A DNA stretch of 56,478 nucleotides from Patescibacteria group bacterium (GTDB lineage: Bacteria; Patescibacteriota; Microgenomatia; Daviesbacterales; UBA10151), in assembly GCA_023379125.1 (NCBI GenBank), contig JAMCSY010000004.1, forward strand, positions 1-56,478, read 5' to 3'. Made by a program: the position numbers and the translations under genes. Under the pieces are notes generated by a model. That model worked only from the letters and a program-made list of their open reading frames with translations. It was not told the origin of the DNA and made no database searches. Shown piece after piece: positions 13,130-25,686 of the stretch; positions within the stretch are counted from its first letter, which is position 1, and the number at the start of each line of letters is the position of its first letter.

Positions 13130-13591
13130 TCAGTTCATAGGCTTAATGTGAGCTATGCTCGCATTAGGCATGAGTGTTCTTAGTTTCTTTAATTCACTAT
13201 CAGAGATAGGATTCCTAGTAAGATCGATTGTAGTTAAATGTTTTAGCTGAGTAATACTCTTGGGTAACGAGCTGAGCTGATTATTATTCAGATATAAAGA
13301 TTGAAGATTTGCAAGCTTCAGGACATCAACCGGTAAGCTTGCAAGATTAGTATTAGATAAATCTAGGTAACAAACATCCTCAGATTGTTTTAAAGCTTCC
13401 TCAAGACTTTTATAAGTTTTAGTATCTGTACAGGTAGTTACTCGATTCTGATCTAGAAATTTAAAGGTAGAAAGAATTTGATCAAAAGTCTCCTTAGCCA
13501 CATTGCTATTTGCTGATGAATAATACTTTACATATATAAAATACTCCTTGTCATTTTTTAGCAGGCTAACTCCATCTGTGGGAAAATCCAT
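13130..13591 (-). CDS. Leucine-rich-repeat (LRR) protein segment. The reading frame continues upstream without a start codon to the TGA at 13889-13891
   Basis: LRR units LDLSNTNLASLPVDVLKLANLQSLYLNNNQLSSLPKSITQLKHLTTIDLTRNPI. The 99 codons upstream (13592-13888) are open in the same frame and look coding (YGFYFKYPPNF...). Confidence 0.7.
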   Translation of the reverse strand: MDFPTDGVSLLKNDKEYFIYVKYYSSANSNVAKETFDQILSTFKFLDQNRVTTCTDTKTYKSLEEALKQSEDVCYLDLSNTNLASLPVDVLKLANLQSLYLNNNQLSSLPKSITQLKHLTTIDLTRNPISDSELKKLRTLMPNASIAHIKPMN

Positions 13592-17700: not shown

Positions 17701-17825
17701 ATTTGACGAAGAGAAAATTCACTCCACTGCACCAAAATCACAGTCACCTTGTAAGGCTACCGCTTAATTGGAATAGTGAAAGAAAGATTCTTGTCATGAT
17801 TCCTTTTGACTAAGGAATCAAAATA

Positions 17826-17850
17826 CCCACCACTTTTTCAAAATCAAAGT
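17826..17850 (-). other. 5' arm of the 16S rRNA processing stem (pairs with 16049-16074)
   Basis: See the partner arm at 16049-16074. It lies in the leader about 125 nt upstream of the mature 5' end. Confidence 0.7.
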
Positions 17851-17951
17851 GGTCTAAAACAGTGTATAGTAGTTAAAAATTTCAATGTGCAAAAGCTGAG
17901 ATCAATCATTAATTAACAACTTCCCAGGCTAATTTATTAATTAGCCTAGAT

Positions 17952-17980
17952 ATTTTAACCTACCCTTGCACGAGAGTCAA
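17952..17980 (-). promoter_or_regulatory. Sigma70-like promoter for the 16S rRNA: TTGACT-17-TAAAAT
   Basis: Minus strand reads TTGACT CTCGTGCAAGGGTAGGT TAAAAT, about 250 nt upstream of the mature 16S 5' end. Confidence 0.6.
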
Positions 17981-18003
17981 TTACTAGCAATATCATCAGG
18001 GGG

Positions 18004-18032
18004 TTGTCAGACGAGATCATATTTTTTAAAAT
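18004..18032 (+). promoter_or_regulatory. Sigma70-like promoter TTGTCA-17-TAAAAT, 6 nt upstream of the ATG at 18039 (leaderless geometry)
   Basis: Plus strand reads TTGTCA GACGAGATCATATTTTT TAAAAT ACAGCC ATG. It is back-to-back with the 16S promoter. Confidence 0.6.
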
Positions 18033-18038
18033 ACAGCC

Positions 18039-18788
18039 ATGAACGAGCAGCCATTTCGTAATCGAGTAGTTTTAGTCAGCGGGGCAGGTGCTGGCATTGG
18101 TAAACAGATTGCCCTGCGTTTTGCTTCTTTGGGAGCCAAAATCGCTTTTTTTGATAAAGACAAACAACTAGTCAAATCCGCTAAACAGCAATTTGATGAT
18201 TTAGAAATACCCAACGTCGCAGGAATTTTAGATGTTACTGATCTAGATAGAATTGATCAATTTCTTGAAAAAGTTGCTTGTGTACTCGGACCGGTCAACA
18301 TCTTAGTTAACAATATTGGGATTGGCTTGGTCCGTGGTTTTTTCAATATTACTCCCAGGGAGTTTGATTTAATCAGACAGACTAATTTTGAAAGCCCCTT
18401 CTTTTTAACCCAAAAAGTAGCTGAAAAGATGCAGGAGGGCGATAATATTATTTTTATCAGCTCAATTCATGCCGAGAATCCTTCTCTAGATCCAGCTTAT
18501 GATAGTAGTAAAGCTGCTACCGATAATCTAGTCAAAAATTTAGCGGTCGAACTCGCACCGGCAAAAATCCGAGTTAATGCTATCGCTCCTGGTCACATCG
18601 ATACCCAGTCTACTGACCCCAGGGAACAATTAGATGTGCCTTTATACAAACAAGCAGGTTTACCAGAGGATATCGCTGAAGCATGCTTATTTTTAGCGGA
18701 TAATCAAAAAGCCAGATATATCACAGGAGTTATTTTACCAGTCACTGGTGGATTACATATTCCTATCCCTCGCAATATTAATCTTTAG
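18039..18788 (+). CDS. Short-chain dehydrogenase/reductase (FabG-like 3-oxoacyl reductase family)
   Basis: Cofactor-binding motif VSGAGAGIGKQIA and catalytic motif YDSSKAA (YxxxK). Confidence 0.85.
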   Translation: MNEQPFRNRVVLVSGAGAGIGKQIALRFASLGAKIAFFDKDKQLVKSAKQQFDDLEIPNVAGILDVTDLDRIDQFLEKVACVLGPVNILVNNIGIGLVRGFFNITPREFDLIRQTNFESPFFLTQKVAEKMQEGDNIIFISSIHAENPSLDPAYDSSKAATDNLVKNLAVELAPAKIRVNAIAPGHIDTQSTDPREQLDVPLYKQAGLPEDIAEACLFLADNQKARYITGVILPVTGGLHIPIPRNINL

Positions 18789-19338
18789 GCAACTGTTTAT
18801 CTATGACCGCAATTGCTTGGTATAACACAATCGCAAGTGACACCATCACATTTAGACTAATATTAATTCCAAACATGGGAATTTCCACAATCGCATCGGC
18901 TATTTTTAGCACTTCTGGAGACACTCCATTGCTCTCATGACCAACAACAAAACAGACTGGTTCCACATAATCAAACTGATTATAGGCAACTGCTTGAGGG
19001 CTTTGTTCAATAGCCACTACTTGTAGCTCTTTGACTACTGTTTTCAGCTGCTGAATTGCCTGCAAGGCACTATCACGATACTCCCAATCAACAATTTCCG
19101 TGGTATTAATAGAGGCTTTTTTTATCCGCGGATTAGGTGGTGTTGCACTACCACCACAGAGGATTACCTTTTGTGCTCCTACTGCATCAGCTAAGCGAAA
19201 GACAGAGCCAATGTTATAGGTATCCAAGACATTGTCTAAAACAATATAAATCTGTTTCTTTTTACTCAGCCGTTTAGTCTGAGCGTTGATAGCTGATGAC
19301 TGAAGATTACGCAATTGGGCTGCGTTAAGCTTTAGCAT
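18778..19338 (-). CDS. TrmH/SpoU-family RNA 2'-O-methyltransferase
   Basis: LDNVLDTYNIGSVFRLADAVGAQKVILCG, VVGHESNGVS and IPMFGINISLNV are SpoU methylase motifs. Confidence 0.8.
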   Translation of the reverse strand: MLKLNAAQLRNLQSSAINAQTKRLSKKKQIYIVLDNVLDTYNIGSVFRLADAVGAQKVILCGGSATPPNPRIKKASINTTEIVDWEYRDSALQAIQQLKTVVKELQVVAIEQSPQAVAYNQFDYVEPVCFVVGHESNGVSPEVLKIADAIVEIPMFGINISLNVMVSLAIVLYQAIAVIDKQLPKD

Positions 19339-19475
19339 AGCCGAATTTTATCATAAGACCCCTTAGCTTGTGCTTGATTTTTTTTAACAAAGCATTAATA
19401 CTGAAGATAGATAGACTGGACTATTGGCTGACTAGTACGTAGACTATGCAACCAATCAGCTAACTAGCTATTTCT

Positions 19476-20297
19476 ATGCAAAAAGTCAAACCAATCCTCA
19501 TTATTTTAGGAGTTCTGATTCTTCTAGGGCTCATCTTTTTTGCCCTCCTCAAAACTGGTGTATTAGACAAGGTAGGATTAGGTAAATACTTAGGTCGAGC
19601 AGCCACAATCGCCAGTAACAAATCAGATCTGGCATTTTTAAATTCTCAGTATCCAGTGAGCATCTTTATGGGCAAGATTGAGCAAATTTCTGGAGACACT
19701 TTAACAGTTAGCCAACAAATGCCCACCACTACTGGTGCTACTAAGCAAGTTACTTACCATATTACAGTAACTCCTCAGACTAAGGTTCAGAGGCCAAATG
19801 GAATTCCAGGAGTTATCTTACCTACCCAAACTTATACTATTCAAGATCTTAAGGTGGGTGAAACAATCACTGTGAACACTAACCAAGATTTAAGAAACTT
19901 ATTAGGAGATACTTTCATTGCCTCCACTATTGATGCTTCAGCTACAATTGTTTATCTATCAGGGACCATCACCACAATCAATTCTGATAGTTTTGACTTA
20001 ACAGTTCCTCCACCTTTTTATCTTGACCCCAACCAAGATCAAATTACTCAAGAAACAGTTTATCAAATTCAGGTTAACCCCCAAACCACAACTACTCAGC
20101 TGGGTAGTTCTGGAAACAAGATACAAACTACCAACCTTCAACTAACCAGTCTCAAGGTAGGGCAAGAGGTTATGGCTTTTGTTAACTTGGATAGTCTAAA
20201 TGGCAATAAGATTACTGCTCTGAACATTCAACCCATCAAAGGTACTGCTTCATCTAGTCAAAACAATGCTTCCACATCAGCTCAACCTAACCCATAA
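19476..20297 (+). CDS. Hypothetical membrane-anchored or secreted protein with an internally duplicated beta-rich module
   Basis: N-terminal TM segment ILIILGVLILLGLIFFALL. Duplicated pattern VTYHITVTPQT...LKVGETITV and VYQIQVNPQT...LKVGQEVMA. Confidence 0.7.
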   Translation: MQKVKPILIILGVLILLGLIFFALLKTGVLDKVGLGKYLGRAATIASNKSDLAFLNSQYPVSIFMGKIEQISGDTLTVSQQMPTTTGATKQVTYHITVTPQTKVQRPNGIPGVILPTQTYTIQDLKVGETITVNTNQDLRNLLGDTFIASTIDASATIVYLSGTITTINSDSFDLTVPPPFYLDPNQDQITQETVYQIQVNPQTTTTQLGSSGNKIQTTNLQLTSLKVGQEVMAFVNLDSLNGNKITALNIQPIKGTASSSQNNASTSAQPNP

Positions 20298-20311
20298 GCA
20301 GAGAGGATTTC

Positions 20312-20340
20312 TTGACATTTTAGGTTCAATCTACATAAAC
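20312..20340 (+). promoter_or_regulatory. Promoter-like TTGACA with a downstream A/T-rich -10 candidate (CATAAA/ATAAAC)
   Basis: cttgacattttaggttcaatctacataaac, located 9-11 nt upstream of the ATG at 20349. Confidence 0.35.
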
Positions 20341-20348
20341 TGAAGTTA

Positions 20349-21968
20349 ATGAGTAAATCAAGTTTCGTGTTTAACAAAAAACAGATTCTCTTTAATTTAA
20401 TATTATTAGGTGTTTTTGTTCTCCTACTACCTCCTTTAAAGGATGTCCTAGCTCAAACAGCACCTACTCCAATTCTCCAAGAACAGAGTAGTAATCCCAA
20501 AGTTAATGGTCCTGCATCTGATGTTTTAGCTGCTTCTACCACAGTTCCCTACCAAAATATCTCTGGTGATGTGAATATCTCTGGTAATACTGATATGATA
20601 GGCAGACTAACAGTGGGATCAAATGGAGTAGATAGAGTTAATGCTGGAAACAATACCACTGGAGGAAACTATGCTCAATATGCACCTAACAGCTGGAGAG
20701 ATGGTTTTGTTCTTTACCGAGCAGGTACTCAAAAAGGCTCTTTGGGTACAGATTCCACAGGAGCTAAACTACAAATCTTTGTAGGTAGTTCTTCTTCCGA
20801 TACTACCCAGACGTTAACCTTAGATTCTTCTGGTAATGCTGCTGTCAGAAATGCAATGTATGCCCCAACACTTTGTTTAGGCTCACCTACTCCTGATTGC
20901 CGTTCCGTCTGGCCTTCAGCTACAGGTGGTGGCTATTGGAGCAGAAATGCTGCTAGTGGGTATGTGTATCCAACTACTACTTCTGACAATATTGTTCTGG
21001 GTAATAATTACAACTGGAGTATTACCTCAAATGCTACCTCAAATGATCCTAATTGGGGTTTTGGAGTCGAGCATCCAGGATCACAATATTTTACCGAAGC
21101 TAAGTTTTGGGGGGCAGGCAATAATCAGGCTTTTAGAGTACTTGATATGAGTAACGGGACAACACCATTGTTTGTTGGAGGAGGAGGTAATGTTGGTTTA
21201 GGTACTAATAATCCTGTTAATAGACTCCAGGTTGAGGGCAATATTCATACAGATGGAGGATCAATCTTTTTAAGAGGAGGAACAGCAGGGGGAGATCAGT
21301 ATGATGTGATTAAATGGAATAGCTCTACAGACAAGGTGGACATTGGTGGGTATAACGGAGTTACTTTAGGACCTACCAGCACTTCTGGTCCTAATAGTGT
21401 TAGTGCTATGTTTACTGTTGATACCAGAGGGCCAGCTTGGGGAAACAGTATGTCTAGAACTGAAACTATGACTGATGCCAATAACACTAATCCTACTACT
21501 GGCTATCGCAGTGGTTTTTACCAATCGCTTGGTGGTGCCAATGTACCTCCTAGTTGTGCAGGAACTTGGTGTCACGTCATTAGCGACAGCCATGAAAATA
21601 CTAATTATGCTCTTCAGCTAGCTAGTGGATTCTTTAATCAAGATGATCTTTACTATCGTGATGTTGATGCTGGAGCTGCTGGGATGGGTACTTGGAAAAA
21701 GATCCTTGCAGTACCAGCTAACGTCGCAACGCCATTTACCAACATGTGGATGGGGCAAGTTTCCGGAGTTTGTACCAACTGTGCAACTCATGTTAATATG
21801 ACAGGTGCAACCTTTAAGGGCACACCAATGGTTTTTGTCAGTATCAACCCAATGGGAGCAGTCAAGCCAACAGCTTATCCTATGAATGTGACCAGTGCTG
21901 GCTTTGATCTACAAACCACAGATGGACTTCCGGCAACTGTCTACTATATGATAGCCTTCGGTCCTTGA
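20349..21968 (+). CDS. Secreted fibre-like protein, paralog A (constant N-terminal module plus divergent C-terminal head)
   Basis: Signal or anchor segment LILLGVFVLLLPP. GNVGLGTNNPVNRLQVEGNI resembles motifs I recall from phage tail-fibre-type proteins. Residues 22-278 are identical to paralog B. Confidence 0.8.
   Translation: MSKSSFVFNKKQILFNLILLGVFVLLLPPLKDVLAQTAPTPILQEQSSNPKVNGPASDVLAASTTVPYQNISGDVNISGNTDMIGRLTVGSNGVDRVNAGNNTTGGNYAQYAPNSWRDGFVLYRAGTQKGSLGTDSTGAKLQIFVGSSSSDTTQTLTLDSSGNAAVRNAMYAPTLCLGSPTPDCRSVWPSATGGGYWSRNAASGYVYPTTTSDNIVLGNNYNWSITSNATSNDPNWGFGVEHPGSQYFTEAKFWGAGNNQAFRVLDMSNGTTPLFVGGGGNVGLGTNNPVNRLQVEGNIHTDGGSIFLRGGTAGGDQYDVIKWNSSTDKVDIGGYNGVTLGPTSTSGPNSVSAMFTVDTRGPAWGNSMSRTETMTDANNTNPTTGYRSGFYQSLGGANVPPSCAGTWCHVISDSHENTNYALQLASGFFNQDDLYYRDVDAGAAGMGTWKKILAVPANVATPFTNMWMGQVSGVCTNCATHVNMTGATFKGTPMVFVSINPMGAVKPTAYPMNVTSAGFDLQTTDGLPATVYYMIAFGP
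20411..21182. repeat. 772-bp direct repeat, apparently identical to 22086-22857
   Basis: Offset of 1675 bp. The encoded 257 aa are identical, as are the off-frame track ORFs 20926..21150 and 22601..22825. Every DNA line I compared matches. Confidence 0.9.
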
Positions 21969-21990
21969 TGATAAGTTGTTAACATTTTGC

Positions 21991-22017
21991 TTGACTTCTC
22001 TAGTTTGCTCATACTAA
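21991..22017 (+). promoter_or_regulatory. Promoter-like motif TTGACT-N15-TACTAA(GCT)
   Basis: ttgacttctctagtttgctcatactaagct. The same geometry and the same catactaagct box recur at 23832-23861. Confidence 0.45.
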
Positions 22018-22038
22018 GCTAAAGTTAACTAACGACTT

Positions 22039-23823
22039 ATGTCCAAATCTTCTAAGCAACTTATTTTTAATCTAGTTCTGCTGTTTGTTTTTGTTCTCCT
22101 ACTACCTCCTTTAAAGGATGTCCTAGCTCAAACAGCACCTACTCCAATTCTCCAAGAACAGAGTAGTAATCCCAAAGTTAATGGTCCTGCATCTGATGTT
22201 TTAGCTGCTTCTACCACAGTTCCCTACCAAAATATCTCTGGTGATGTGAATATCTCTGGTAATACTGATATGATAGGCAGACTAACAGTGGGATCAAATG
22301 GAGTAGATAGAGTTAATGCTGGAAACAATACCACTGGAGGAAACTATGCTCAATATGCACCTAACAGCTGGAGAGATGGTTTTGTTCTTTACCGAGCAGG
22401 TACTCAAAAAGGCTCTTTGGGTACAGATTCCACAGGAGCTAAACTACAAATCTTTGTAGGTAGTTCTTCTTCCGATACTACCCAGACGTTAACCTTAGAT
22501 TCTTCTGGTAATGCTGCTGTCAGAAATGCAATGTATGCCCCAACACTTTGTTTAGGCTCACCTACTCCTGATTGCCGTTCCGTCTGGCCTTCAGCTACAG
22601 GTGGTGGCTATTGGAGCAGAAATGCTGCTAGTGGGTATGTGTATCCAACTACTACTTCTGACAATATTGTTCTGGGTAATAATTACAACTGGAGTATTAC
22701 CTCAAATGCTACCTCAAATGATCCTAATTGGGGTTTTGGAGTCGAGCATCCAGGATCACAATATTTTACCGAAGCTAAGTTTTGGGGGGCAGGCAATAAT
22801 CAGGCTTTTAGAGTACTTGATATGAGTAACGGGACAACACCATTGTTTGTTGGAGGAAATAGCGCTGTCGGTATTAACACCAGTAACCCACTTGATAAAT
22901 TTGTTGTCCACTTGGGTCCAGATAATAACTTGGCTTTAACATCTAGTACTTATGCCGTACTGGCCTCGCACAACGATGCCTGGACAGCCTGGGGTAACCT
23001 GCAGCTAAATAACAGTATGTACTTGCTTAGTAACGGTAATGTCGGAATTGGTAACGTTACACCTGGCTCTCAATTTACAGTTGGTAATAATTATCTCGCA
23101 GTTGATACCAACGGACCTACCTGGGCATCTGGTAGTCAAGGAGGCGCTGCTGGTGCTGCCAATAATCGTACTCAAGTTAAAGCCAACGCTGGTGATCTTG
23201 CTTCTGGATCAGGAGACCGAAGCGGCTTTTTTGAGGCACTAAACGGTGTGAATTACCCACCAGGATGTAACACAACCTGGTGTCATCTTTTAGATGTTAG
23301 GTCAACTAATAATAACTACGCTATGCAGTTTGCTGGTTCCTTCTTTGACCAAACTCTTTATTTCCGCAAAACTGCTAACAGTGCCTCCCATTCTTGGCAA
23401 AAAGTAGTAACAGCCCCAATTAATACTAGTGGCACTTTAACGCCTATTATCAACATCAATGCAGCAATTAGCCAAAGCGATGGCTATACTTCTAACCGAC
23501 TAGGCTACCTTCTTTATACCGATAGCAAAACACTATCTTATAAAGTAGTGGGTTGGAATCCTGGTACAATGACCACTCGTGTGCGGGTTTGCTATAACGA
23601 AGATGGTAATCCTACAGGTGGCTGGAATGTTTCTTATACTTGCAATCATCCGGTTAAGACTTGGCAACTTCCAGGCGGTGGTACAACTTACCGAGACAGC
23701 GGCACCATTGATGTCTCTGCTTATGTCCCTGCATACGGACAACCTGTCCTGGTTAATTATGATCTGAACCCAACCGGTGGCAGTAGCAGTGATCAAGGTT
23801 CTGTCCAAATCGTCCTCTGGTAG
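22039..23823 (+). CDS. Secreted fibre-like protein, paralog B (same N-terminal module, different C-terminal head)
   Basis: 594-aa ORF. Its C-terminal half shares only a short core with paralog A (RSGFFEALNGVNYPPGCNTTWCHLL vs RSGFYQSLGGANVPPSCAGTWCHVI). Confidence 0.8.
   Translation: MSKSSKQLIFNLVLLFVFVLLLPPLKDVLAQTAPTPILQEQSSNPKVNGPASDVLAASTTVPYQNISGDVNISGNTDMIGRLTVGSNGVDRVNAGNNTTGGNYAQYAPNSWRDGFVLYRAGTQKGSLGTDSTGAKLQIFVGSSSSDTTQTLTLDSSGNAAVRNAMYAPTLCLGSPTPDCRSVWPSATGGGYWSRNAASGYVYPTTTSDNIVLGNNYNWSITSNATSNDPNWGFGVEHPGSQYFTEAKFWGAGNNQAFRVLDMSNGTTPLFVGGNSAVGINTSNPLDKFVVHLGPDNNLALTSSTYAVLASHNDAWTAWGNLQLNNSMYLLSNGNVGIGNVTPGSQFTVGNNYLAVDTNGPTWASGSQGGAAGAANNRTQVKANAGDLASGSGDRSGFFEALNGVNYPPGCNTTWCHLLDVRSTNNNYAMQFAGSFFDQTLYFRKTANSASHSWQKVVTAPINTSGTLTPIININAAISQSDGYTSNRLGYLLYTDSKTLSYKVVGWNPGTMTTRVRVCYNEDGNPTGGWNVSYTCNHPVKTWQLPGGGTTYRDSGTIDVSAYVPAYGQPVLVNYDLNPTGGSSSDQGSVQIVLW
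22086..22857. repeat. 772-bp direct repeat, apparently identical to 20411-21182
   Basis: See the partner copy at 20411-21182. Confidence 0.9.
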
Positions 23824-23867: not shown

Positions 23868-24713
23868 GTGAGAGAATTTAAATATCTTCTGTTCAGCTTA
23901 ATTTTTATTTCAGGATTATTTTTTGCTCCCTGGTTGGTTTCCCGAGTATCTGCTGAGGTGGCTACCAAGCAAGACTGGATTGGTTTTTTTCCTGTCTACA
24001 CTACCGCTGTTGGTTGGCATAACTCTGCTAATGCTGCCTATTTAGCGATACCTAACAGCTGGGTTTATGCTAATAATAATTGTAATCGCAACTGGAATAC
24101 TGCTACTCCTAATCTATCTATCTCTGGTTGTAGTTTGGGTAGCATGGGAGTTACTTTTGACGGAACAGGCGAACCCAATAATTTAACCCCCGGTGCTTAT
24201 GAATTCAGGTTAAATATTAATGACACTGGTACAGGTAACTCCAGCAACCCCCTAACCTCCCTAGGTAGCGACGGAGCTATGCTTTCGCAATCAAAGGTTG
24301 TCTGGAAAAAGTTCTGGATGAACAATAATCCTTTAAGTTGCGTGATCACGGGCTCTAGTGCCTATGTTGATATAAACTTGTATGTTAGAAGTAGTGCCTC
24401 AGCAGTCGGTGCTTCAATCTTGAAAGGAATAGAAACTGTTAATATTTTACGCAACACACCTCCTTCAGGAACTTTAAACTCTGTTGGAAGTAGTAATCCA
24501 GCGGCTGGAACTTATCGAGACACATCAGTGGTGATTGGCCAATCTTATACCTATCAGCTCCAAGCAGTGACTACCCGAGGTGTAGCCAGACCTTCTGAAA
24601 ATACTGCTAGTATTTCTATTGATACCTCTACTTGCCTAAGTTATAGTTCTTGGTTGCAGACAATTGGTGGTGATGTTAACGCCAACAATCAGCTCAACCT
24701 TCACTCACGATAG
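23868..24713 (+). CDS. Secreted hypothetical protein (signal peptide, beta-rich, FN3/Ig-like C-terminal region)
   Basis: GTG start. Signal peptide LLFSLIFISGLFFAPWLVSRVSA-EV. There is no in-frame ATG near the N-terminus. Confidence 0.65.
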   Translation: MREFKYLLFSLIFISGLFFAPWLVSRVSAEVATKQDWIGFFPVYTTAVGWHNSANAAYLAIPNSWVYANNNCNRNWNTATPNLSISGCSLGSMGVTFDGTGEPNNLTPGAYEFRLNINDTGTGNSSNPLTSLGSDGAMLSQSKVVWKKFWMNNNPLSCVITGSSAYVDINLYVRSSASAVGASILKGIETVNILRNTPPSGTLNSVGSSNPAAGTYRDTSVVIGQSYTYQLQAVTTRGVARPSENTASISIDTSTCLSYSSWLQTIGGDVNANNQLNLHSR

Positions 24714-24804
24714 TAACTTTGTAAATAATAAGCTTCCAACCAGTGGTTTTGTGCTTTGTGCAATTGACTTTTCTCTGAGGCTGTGCCAGCATAATTAATA
24801 GGAG

Positions 24805-25686
24805 ATGTTTAGCCAGATTCTTCACTCCAAACTCTTAAAGACAGGTTTAATTACCCTAGTAATAGGTCTTTCATCATTGATTTTAATCATTGGTTTGAAG
24901 ATCAGTGCTGTTTATTCACAAACCTGTGCTGAAACAGCTGATGATACCTCCGCAGTAATCCAAGGAGGTTTGGTAACTGCTTTTAGTTTAGGCAATACTC
25001 TACAGCTTCTTAACCCCAACAGCTCTTCCTGCTATTATGGTAAATCTTCTGCTATTACCAACATTTCTACTATCCAAGATTACAATACTTTAAAGTCTTT
25101 ATACTTTACCCAAATCAAATCAGCTGATATCAATCAATATACTTTTCCCAATGTCCCTGGTATAGCAGAACTTAATTCTCAAATTCAAGCTGGTAAAATT
25201 AATCTTTTTAATACACCAACTGGACCAGTAACCCTTACTTTAGATGGTAGTTTAAATATCAATAATCCTAACACAGTGGTGATTATTTTTGCTGATAGCG
25301 GCATCGATATTACTACTAACCAACTCTATAATCTTGGCAGTTCTGGTTTAATGCTCGTCTCCAATGGCAATATTAATGTTTATTATGAGGCTGGACACCA
25401 AGTTACTGAGGTTGATGCTTTTATGATTACTTATGGACAATTCTGTAGCATTTATCAATCTGGTCATTGTGGAAACGGTAGTGGTGGGCAAGTTGATGTT
25501 GGGGCTGATCAATTAATAGTTCATGGCTCAGTGATTTCAGCTAACAGTGGGGCTGCCCCACTCTTCCTCAGAAAATTGGCTGATAATCAAGACCCAGCTG
25601 AAAAATTTATTTATGAACCAAAATACCTCATTATCAGCAAACCAGTCTTTGCCAAAGATAAAGCCATTTGGGGTGAGATTAAATAA
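24805..25686 (+). CDS. Secreted or membrane-anchored hypothetical protein
   Basis: AGGAG immediately precedes the ATG. N-terminal TM segment LITLVIGLSSLILIIGL. Confidence 0.65.
   Translation: MFSQILHSKLLKTGLITLVIGLSSLILIIGLKISAVYSQTCAETADDTSAVIQGGLVTAFSLGNTLQLLNPNSSSCYYGKSSAITNISTIQDYNTLKSLYFTQIKSADINQYTFPNVPGIAELNSQIQAGKINLFNTPTGPVTLTLDGSLNINNPNTVVIIFADSGIDITTNQLYNLGSSGLMLVSNGNINVYYEAGHQVTEVDAFMITYGQFCSIYQSGHCGNGSGGQVDVGADQLIVHGSVISANSGAAPLFLRKLADNQDPAEKFIYEPKYLIISKPVFAKDKAIWGEIK

Follow-up and report, generated by a model that had tools for sequence, protein, structure and literature searches.

Two adjoining genes in a 56,478-nucleotide (nt) stretch of DNA from a Patescibacteria group bacterium (GenBank assembly GCA_023379125.1, contig JAMCSY010000004.1, positions 1 to 56,478; hereafter the window) are identical letter for letter through much of their interiors, and diverged on either side. 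How do two genes come to be the same in the middle and different at both ends, and what do they encode? We find that the duplication is real. With moderate confidence, we favour the view that the genes are old tandem paralogs encoding surface fibres whose base has been gene-converted and whose tips have diversified, similar to the fibres of the superfamily of mosaic adhesive trimers (MAT) named in Bdellovibrio bacteriovorus (Caulton et al. 2024, Nat Microbiol, PMC10769870) and lacking the Peptidase_S74 (S74) domain.

An exact tract between diverged flanks

Base-by-base comparison at an offset of 1675 returned one uninterrupted exact run of 772 nt, in which 20411-21182 equals 22086-22857 (Table 1). 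The open reading frames (ORFs) and the 772-nt identity of the original prediction are confirmed, the tract corresponding to residues 22-278 in gene 1 and 17-273 in gene 2. Its 5' end falls within the hydrophobic core of the predicted signal peptide and its 3' end at the FVGG codons, and the first 243 residues of the predicted mature proteins are common to both. In each gene the tract stops 3-4 residues ahead of the first capping-loop motif, which marks a module boundary.

Both flanks of the tract have diverged. The 16 head codons that can be aligned show 75% amino acid and 58% nucleotide identity between the genes and are synonymously saturated (for example, serine is AGT in one and TCC in the other), while the tails show 17-44% amino acid and 35-55% nucleotide identity. 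Against such flanks, 772 consecutive matches are far beyond chance. Within the C-terminal halves, amino acid identity is 23-44% over the loop region and core and 17% over the last 80-135 residues. The halves had been described as different heads that retain a short common core. The core, RSGF..PP.C..TWCH..NYA.Q.A..FF.Q..Y.R, is indeed in both genes and the last 80-135 residues are unrelated, but a loop-plus-core architecture is kept throughout the rest.

Each protein opens with a putative signal peptide, in sequence a typical n-h-c region ending VLA/Q, and the N-terminal helix of gene 2 has a predicted local distance difference test score (pLDDT) of 72-93 in a full-length AlphaFold2 (AF2) model. 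Both proteins carry six cysteines in three local pairs, as would be expected of an extracellular protein.

Table 1. Positions and features of the two fibre-like genes in the window.
Feature	Positions	Strand	Description	Basis
Gene 1	20349-21968	+	539-residue secreted fibre-like protein (MAT-like, without S74 domain)	ORF; hidden Markov model (HMM) of relatives
Gene 2	22039-23823	+	594-residue secreted fibre-like paralog	ORF; HMM; core homologues; AF2 models
Identity tract, copy 1	20411-21182	+	772 nt, residues 22-278 of gene 1	exact match; ~2x unitig depth
Identity tract, copy 2	22086-22857	+	residues 17-273 of gene 2	exact match to copy 1
Predicted signal peptide / N-terminal anchor helix, gene 1	20349-20453	+	residues 1-35, ...VLA/Q	K-rich n-region; hydrophobic core
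Predicted signal peptide / N-terminal anchor helix, gene 2	22039-22128	+	residues 1-30	sequence; model
Conserved fibre unit	20661-20837 (also 22336-22512)	+	GGNYAQ..WRDG..RAGTQ..G.DS.G.KLQ.F.G....TLDSSGN	phmmer; alignment A2
Polymorphic patch in tract	20854-21044 (also 22529-22719)	+	second in-frame (+15 nt) diverged version in population	alternative unitig
Capping-loop-type motif VGLGTNNPVNRL, gene 1	21192-21227	+		regular expression; alignment to relatives' GNVGIGT..P...L unit
Capping-loop-type motif VGINTSNPLDKF, gene 2	22867-22902	+		regular expression; compare VGINTAAPLQKL of Bd2133
Second capping-loop-type motif VGIGNVTPGSQF, gene 2	23041-23076	+		HMM domain, E = 4e-5; regular expression
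Core domain, gene 1	21456-21713	+	RSGFY..PPSC..TWCH..NYALQ..FFNQ..YYR	44% amino acid identity to gene 2 core; in alignment A3
Core domain, gene 2	23167-23418	+	~residues 377-460	homologues; seven invariant columns; AF2 pLDDT 80-92
Tip 1	21714-21965	+	last ~84 residues of gene 1, possibly H-type-lectin-like	sub-threshold Pfam
Tip 2	23404-23820	+	last ~139 residues of gene 2, beta-rich	no detectable relatives

Two repeat copies in the reads

Four metagenome runs (X1-X4) of one mine-tailings study contain the locus, and we used them in the form of Logan contigs assembled at k=31. In X1, X2 and X3 a single unitig of 963 or 972 nt covers 21153-22115: it starts in the final 30 nt of the repeat, crosses tail 1, the intergenic spacer and head 2, and finishes 30 nt into the repeat. 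Because this unitig has the repeat at both ends, any genome with that segment carries two repeat copies. Depth is raised as well: the word depth of the repeat unitigs is 92.6-110.7 in X1 and 94.6-104.8 in X2, or ~1.5-2.4 times the flanking depth (unique middle and downstream contig, 50.6 and 45.1 in X1, 64.3 and 66 in X2). In X3 a single-nucleotide polymorphism, 21174 G>A, sits on the unitig running into tail 1, so the copies can be told apart in that run. Finally, in a second public assembly a contig matching 22731-31066 at 100% identity begins exactly 127 nt within the repeat, and such a break is the signature of a k=127 graph at a true repeat. The original prediction had asked for reads to be checked for an assembly artefact; the unitigs running from repeat to repeat, the raised depth and the second assembly breaking at the repeat exclude an assembly duplication.

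Beyond this study, a sediment metagenome from another one (X5, 2022) contains a 279-nt contig that matches 23500-23778 of tail 2 exactly. It has 28% of the tail-2 words but hardly anything else from the region, so either the organism or this piece of the gene is also present away from the mine-tailings site.

Relatives of the shared base carry GNVGIGT loops

A word-based homologue search with the shared module (residues 30-285) returned only the window's own proteins. With phmmer, 24 relatives were recovered among 1.84 billion representatives, with best E values of 4.8e-16 to 4e-11, and all 24 match one unit, GGNYAQ.A..WRDG..L.RAGTQ....G.DS.G.KLQ.F.G.....T..LT.DSSGN. In these relatives the unit leads straight into GNVGIGT..P...L loops, and two of the nine that were scanned against Pfam end in Peptidase_S74. 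An HMM of the relatives, built without the window's rows, scores 108 bits on both window proteins (E = 6e-35 for gene 1) and also detects the downstream loops. The S74 domain itself (PF13884, SDxxxK) is present only in the relatives, with no match in the window proteins at E<=1 over their whole length or at E<=10 on the tips.

Gene 1 has one clear loop motif and gene 2 has two, of the pattern VG[IL][GN]T..P...[LF], and these follow the published capping-loop consensus, V-G-G/N-pi-x-x-P-x-x-x-L. In a HMMER alignment, the relatives' GNVGIGT..P...L unit aligns to the Bd2133 loops GNLGLGTAAPTSAL, VGINTAAPLQKL and GNVGIGATAPTAKL. The profile of alignment A2, which combines the window module with 13 relatives, matches Bdellovibrio fibres (Bd2133 8OND, E = 6.8e-19; 8OJN, E = 1e-11), and also 8OML, 8OL4, 8ON4 and an S74-containing MYRF region; a profile of the core's relatives matches 8OND at E = 4e-7 through their loop region. 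The original prediction had likened the GNVG motifs to those of phage tail fibres, a comparison now supported by profiles rather than by curated families: the relatives have GNVGIGT loops and Peptidase_S74, and their profile matches MAT fibres.

By tblastn against phage genomes, the only matches were weak ones to cyanophage 'virion structural proteins' (E = 1e-5 to 6e-4). Scanning species-representative genomes with the shared module gave nothing beyond Bacteroidota core-domain loci, and scanning JGI metagenomes with a single protein gave nothing. With an alignment as the query, only two distant loci (L008 and L009) were found, and L008 carries a single-copy gene in a context that does not look like that of the candidate phyla radiation (CPR).

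A conserved core and unrelated tips

A search with gene 2 among 5.8 billion proteins gave 92 matches, and all but the window's own proteins fall on residues ~370-460. These relatives share the motif SGFFE..NYP....W[WC]HLLDVR...NNYAMQFAGSFFDQ.LYFRK, with up to 61-66% identity. Most of the named ones come from Bacteroidota, under labels such as 'tail fiber domain-containing', 'endosialidase-like' or 'PilV tip adhesin', and in some of them other parts of the protein bear Peptidase_S74, Shufflon_N or collagen repeats. The ~90-residue core is thus common to many Bacteroidota proteins and absent from the Pfam copy that we searched, a small lead for domain annotation. A precomputed table tags many of the relatives (P0011, P0038, P0044 and others) as PF26696.

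The full-length AF2 model of gene 2 has a mean pLDDT of 53.5 and is confident only at the N-terminal helix and the core (~370-460). Modelled alone, the core is a small beta domain with pLDDT 76, and 80-92 across the domain. Its best neighbours in the PDB are chains of the phi812 baseplate, of R2 pyocin's fibre and of the tail fibre of Mu, along with further receptor-binding proteins of phages; template modelling (TM) scores on the query are 0.38-0.47, with a root-mean-square deviation of ~3.5 A over 85-89 columns for the top three. That the fold keeps company with phage and pyocin fibres is suggestive. The full-length model drew nothing significant in a Foldseek search of the PDB, and its BFVD neighbours are almost all tail-fibre or S74 proteins, with a best E of 5e-6.

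For the tips there is less to compare. The sole Pfam match of tip 1 at E<=10 is H_lectin (PF09458), at E = 0.048 and 14.2 bits against a cut-off of 24, over profile positions 9-59 of 67, and a word search found no homologue of this tip beyond the window's own protein. Tip 2 has no Pfam match at E<=10, and AF2 predicts its strands at low confidence. Beta-rich C-terminal tips with no Peptidase_S74 correspond to the NS74 class of PMC10769870.

From these features we infer that both proteins are probably Sec-exported, disulfide-containing fibres of the surface type, with surface display and trimerisation presumed by analogy. Each would consist of a signal peptide, a 243-residue common base with the fibre-shaft unit, one or two capping-loop beta-helix segments, the ~90-residue core and a distal tip of 80-135 residues.

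Several results weigh against this interpretation. Neither protein has a direct match in Pfam, PHROGs or NCBIfam, and phmmer finds no PDB sequence match for either at E<=10. The link to MAT fibres is transitive and rests largely on a short loop-containing unit. The structural matches of the core in the PDB all have E > 0.09, none of them significant, and the BFVD matches are weak evidence because the full-length model is poor. On the DNA side, the alternative version of part of the tract, described below, means that the 772-nt identity may make the conversion tract look longer than it is in the dominant haplotype.

A polymorphic patch within the tract

At 20854-21044 the graphs of X1 and X2 open into a bubble, so that the repeat is split over more than one unitig. 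The window's version of this patch is a 251-nt unitig with a depth of 56.5 in X1 and 73.3 in X2, and the alternative is a 266-nt unitig with a depth of 48.5 and 41.1, respectively. The alternative has 100 other letters in place of 76 nt, followed by 21 substitutions and 9 deleted bases, for a net gain of 15 nt in frame; its reconstructed part reads SGYVYPTTTTDNIGMSSDYNWRITTSTDPNWGFG, where the window has SGYVYPTTTSDNIVLGNNYNWSITSNATSNDPNWGFG. Of the 15 codons changed in the reconstructed part, 6 are synonymous, and substitutions of every base type occur. Judged from these letters, the alternative appears to be old homologous sequence, and neither an error nor the product of mutagenesis by a diversity-generating retroelement. 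The module that had been taken as constant is exactly so in the window, but the source population has two versions of the tract's central quarter.

The perfect identity over 772 nt means either one haplotype or a simplification by the assembler, and contigs at k=31 cannot phase the patch versions, that is, tell two copies from two strains. Suppose that the tandem genes are real and that one copy holds the window's patch and the other the alternative, with the bubble popped during assembly. The true tracts would then be ~443 nt and 138 nt. The near-equal depths in X1 (56.5 against 48.5) fit this proposal, as do the summed depths of the two versions, 105 in X1 and 114 in X2, which are near or slightly above those of the flanking repeat unitigs, and the alternative patch is in frame and resembles old paralogous sequence. 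The ratio differs in X2, however, and the alternative unitig was not found in X3; strain mixtures fit at least as well. In X4 the window's patch is physically joined to tail 2. Moreover, the contig upstream of gene 1 (17782-20440) has about half the baseline depth, 26.6 against 45.1 downstream in X1 and 29.6 against 66 in X2, which points to co-existing haplotypes. The varying ratio and the half-depth flank together favour co-existing haplotypes, and we regard partial simplification by the assembler as possible but doubtful. Arithmetic on unitig depths was also tried: 'one reference and one alternative patch per genome' and 'two strains' fitted equally, and neither was adopted.

The upstream contig encodes an SDR protein, a SpoU methylase and a 273-residue secreted protein. 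It is missing from X4 although the flanking regions are covered, and its depth pattern suggests strain-level replacement or loss of a 2.6-kb stretch.

A possible single-gene allele

X4 raises the possibility of a recombinational variation system, in which unequal crossing-over between the direct repeats would delete or re-create the middle segment. Cells would thus alternate between carrying two fibres and carrying one chimeric fibre (head 1, base and tail 2), and the tips displayed would vary across the population. That run contains 99% of the tail-2 words and <5% of the words of the middle segment 21190-22080. Its contigs lead from head 1 into the repeat (20341-20737) and from the reference patch through the repeat into tail 2, and neighbouring genes are covered 5-11x. 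The pattern hints at an allele with a single chimeric gene. But the depth at the locus is low (2.9-4.8), the 2.6 kb upstream of gene 1 is missing too, so that X4 may represent a different strain, and the two contigs remain separate. The window showed no recombinase, inverted repeats or silent cassettes. We consider such a toggling system unlikely.

Probable gene conversion between old paralogs

An exact tract between saturated homologous flanks is most simply explained by recent gene conversion between old paralogs. The original prediction had left two options open, gene conversion or a recent duplication with a tip swap, and the first fits better, both flanks being old and saturated. Recent duplication, with the C-terminal half then exchanged through illegitimate or horizontal recombination, has a precedent in Bd2133 and Bd1334, which are described with swapped tips on a conserved N-terminal part (PMC10769870), and the 3' boundary of the tract does coincide with a module junction. 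Yet the 5' side is also diverged (58% nucleotide identity, in homologous signal peptides), and a second, independent replacement of 62 nt would be needed there. The tails are homologous in architecture, loop plus core, and not foreign, and a diverged internal patch occurs as an allele, as patchy conversion predicts. Because duplication needs two independent replacements, of head and of tail, gene conversion is preferred, and we think a fresh duplication with tip swap improbable.

Under the gene-conversion reading, homologous recombination between the adjoining copies would recently have replaced the stretch that encodes the base, so that up to 772 nt are the same in both, and the distal halves have stayed diverged. 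The diverged in-frame patch would be a remnant of patchy or incomplete conversion. Docking of both fibres to one and the same cell-surface partner, or a common assembly route, may account for the uniform base, and the tips may bind different ligands, probably glycans on the surface of partner cells.

Two switching mechanisms were considered and rejected. Shufflon (PilV-type) switching is set aside for want of a Shufflon_N match, of meaningful inverted repeats at the locus and of a recombinase in the window. A diversity-generating retroelement is set aside on the patch differences, which comprise all base types and indels where such an element would alter adenines only, and on the lack of a third repeat copy in the window; no search was aimed at a reverse transcriptase.

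Possible roles of the fibres

Adhesion is not the only role that can be proposed. The proteins could instead be structural or enzymatic components of the envelope, for example S-layer-associated or glycan-processing, that use fibre-type building blocks. Neither tip has a significant family match, and the cluster adjoins envelope-glycosylation genes (UppS, GT-C). On the other hand, library scans gave zero catalytic-domain matches, the closest characterised relatives are adhesive fibres, and the sole hint for a tip, below threshold, is a lectin fold. A non-adhesive role therefore seems to us a rather remote prospect. In a CPR episymbiont, the ligands of adhesive tips would by analogy likely be structures on the surface of the partner cell.

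A bolder proposal is that the pair forms part of the host-recognition apparatus of a CPR episymbiont. MAT-like fibres would read partner glycans and diversify in real time by patchy conversion and unequal crossing-over, giving haplotypes with different base patches and tip numbers (two genes, or a single head-1/tail-2 gene). We hold this proposal to be speculative and on present evidence somewhat unlikely. If true, the pair would be the first candidate for what determines specificity in a CPR bacterium of the Microgenomates type, and would evolve like phage receptor-binding proteins. To our knowledge, partner-cell recognition and attachment by ultrasmall CPR bacteria are largely uncharted outside cultured Saccharibacteria, and the fibre pair offers concrete candidates for attachment specificity in CPR.

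Genomic context

The neighbours of the pair are chromosomal housekeeping and envelope genes: 16S rRNA, tRNAs, a SpoU methylase, UppS, a GT-C glycosyltransferase, a polyprenyl synthase and an extracytoplasmic function (ECF)-type sigma factor. There are no phage genes, recombinase or silent cassettes in the window, in line with what had been noted earlier of the phage genes, and tblastn within the window found no third repeat copy, further paralogs or silent tip cassettes. None of the RNA runs contains the locus.

The fibre pair is flanked, on its own strand, by three ORFs with N-terminal hydrophobic segments (19476-20297, 23868-24713 and 24805-25686), which suggest further secreted or membrane-anchored proteins. 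Pfam, PHROGs and NCBIfam give no match to these, only sub-threshold hints of DUF5666 and Ig-like domains. A TTGACTTC box lies upstream both of gene 2 and of the ORF at 23868.

Downstream of the pair, a 1789-nt contig of X3 agrees with the window as far as 24475 and from there switches to the opposite strand, reading from 24750 back to 24619, and the reference arrangement across 24475 is represented only by a 158-nt contig with a depth of 2.4. This could be an inversion of ~275 nt or a chimeric unitig. An inversion would span the 3' end of the ORF at 23868-24713 and a promoter-like site at 24619-24647 upstream of the ORF at 24805-25686. Near the joints there are only 8-nt inverted repeats (24483-24490 and 24733-24740).

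Elsewhere in the window, near the rRNA gene, the minus strand encodes a 153-residue leucine-rich-repeat (LRR) protein (LRR_4/LRR_8) at 13130-13591. LRR proteins are uncommon in small bacterial genomes.

Comparison with known systems

Besides MAT fibres, the genes resemble three kinds of system. The first is that of phage S74 fibres and tailspikes, such as the K1F endosialidase and the T5 L-shaped fibre. Relatives of the fibre unit end in Peptidase_S74 as these do, and the phi812 baseplate, R2 pyocin and Mu fibres are the nearest structural neighbours of the core, at matches that are not significant. In contrast to phage fibres, the window proteins have no S74 domain and no PHROG match, and there are no phage genes nearby. 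The second comprises the R64 PilV shufflon and the Gin and Cin switches of Mu and P1, which likewise combine a constant N-terminal part with alternative C-terminal tips, and some relatives of the core carry Shufflon_N. Unlike in those switches, both window genes are complete, co-oriented and separately promoted.

The third is found in Bacteroidota, in 'tail fiber domain-containing' and 'endosialidase-like' proteins (for example ACFSR6_03870/03880). These share with the window proteins the ~90-residue core (SGFFE..W[WC]H..NNYAMQ..FFDQ.LYFRK), GNVGIGT loops, tandem paralogs and the division into one constant and one variable part. In Pedobacter vanadiisoli (NZ_JBHULL010000004.1, locus L002, 8943-16369), at least 8 adjacent co-oriented genes encode secreted proteins of 238-352 residues with a near-constant C-terminal module (a GNVGIGT loop, NWPDYVFE..., HLPxxPxAKE and a coiled coil) and differing N-terminal domains, and two of the genes carry a core of the window type. 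Tandem mosaic arrays are thus typical of such proteins. The polarity differs: Pedobacter has its constant module at the C-terminus (loop, W.DYVF..HLP..PSA, coiled coil), and its core directly follows the signal peptide, whereas the constant module of the window proteins is N-terminal and they have no C-terminal coiled-coil module.

MAT proteins, among them the prey-recognition fibres of Bdellovibrio, are the closest characterised relatives. They are described as surface-displayed trimeric fibres with a signal peptide, directly followed by a conserved beta-rich N-terminal domain of ~130 residues, in which capping loops bound the beta-helix segments and the C-terminus is an S74 chaperone or one of diverse independent tips; in that description it is the conserved end that docks the fibre to the cell, and the tips that diversify (PMC10769870). 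Like them, the window proteins have a predicted signal peptide, a conserved N-terminal part, capping loops of the form VG(I)[GN]-small-xxPxxxL and beta-rich non-S74 tips. In both systems there are paralogs with near-identical N-terminal parts and exchanged tips, and some MAT genes are adjacent by gene number (bd0704/0705, bd3266/3267). The constant stalk with exchangeable tips that had been proposed for the pair is thus the design described for MAT proteins (PMC10769870), with the qualification that the tips are not wholly different and that the module is polymorphic.

There are also differences. The window proteins have 539 and 594 residues against about 1,000 in MAT proteins, and no more than one or two loop units can be recognised in them. 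Their N-module is modelled at pLDDT <50 and has relatives of its own, and they contain an extra core domain in common with Bacteroidota proteins. The common part is 100% identical in DNA, against 75% protein identity between the N-terminal parts of Bd2133 and Bd1334, whose tips are exchanged (PMC10769870). The host is also of a different kind: the MAT proteins of other lineages in Table S3 of PMC10769870 come from predators, Bacteroidota and Omnitrophota, with no CPR member, and the window is from a CPR-type lineage outside that table. Among the papers searched, none was found to link MAT-like fibres to CPR, and none mentions the GNVGIGT motif string or the accession of the second assembly.

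A conserved base, swapped tips, tail-fibre ancestry and adjacent paralogs are already known from the MAT superfamily and from phage fibres. What is new here is the occurrence in a CPR-type genome, the conversion tract at the DNA level with mosaicism in the population, and an unannotated conserved core domain. The mosaic-fibre principle is thereby extended from phages and predators to a putative episymbiont.

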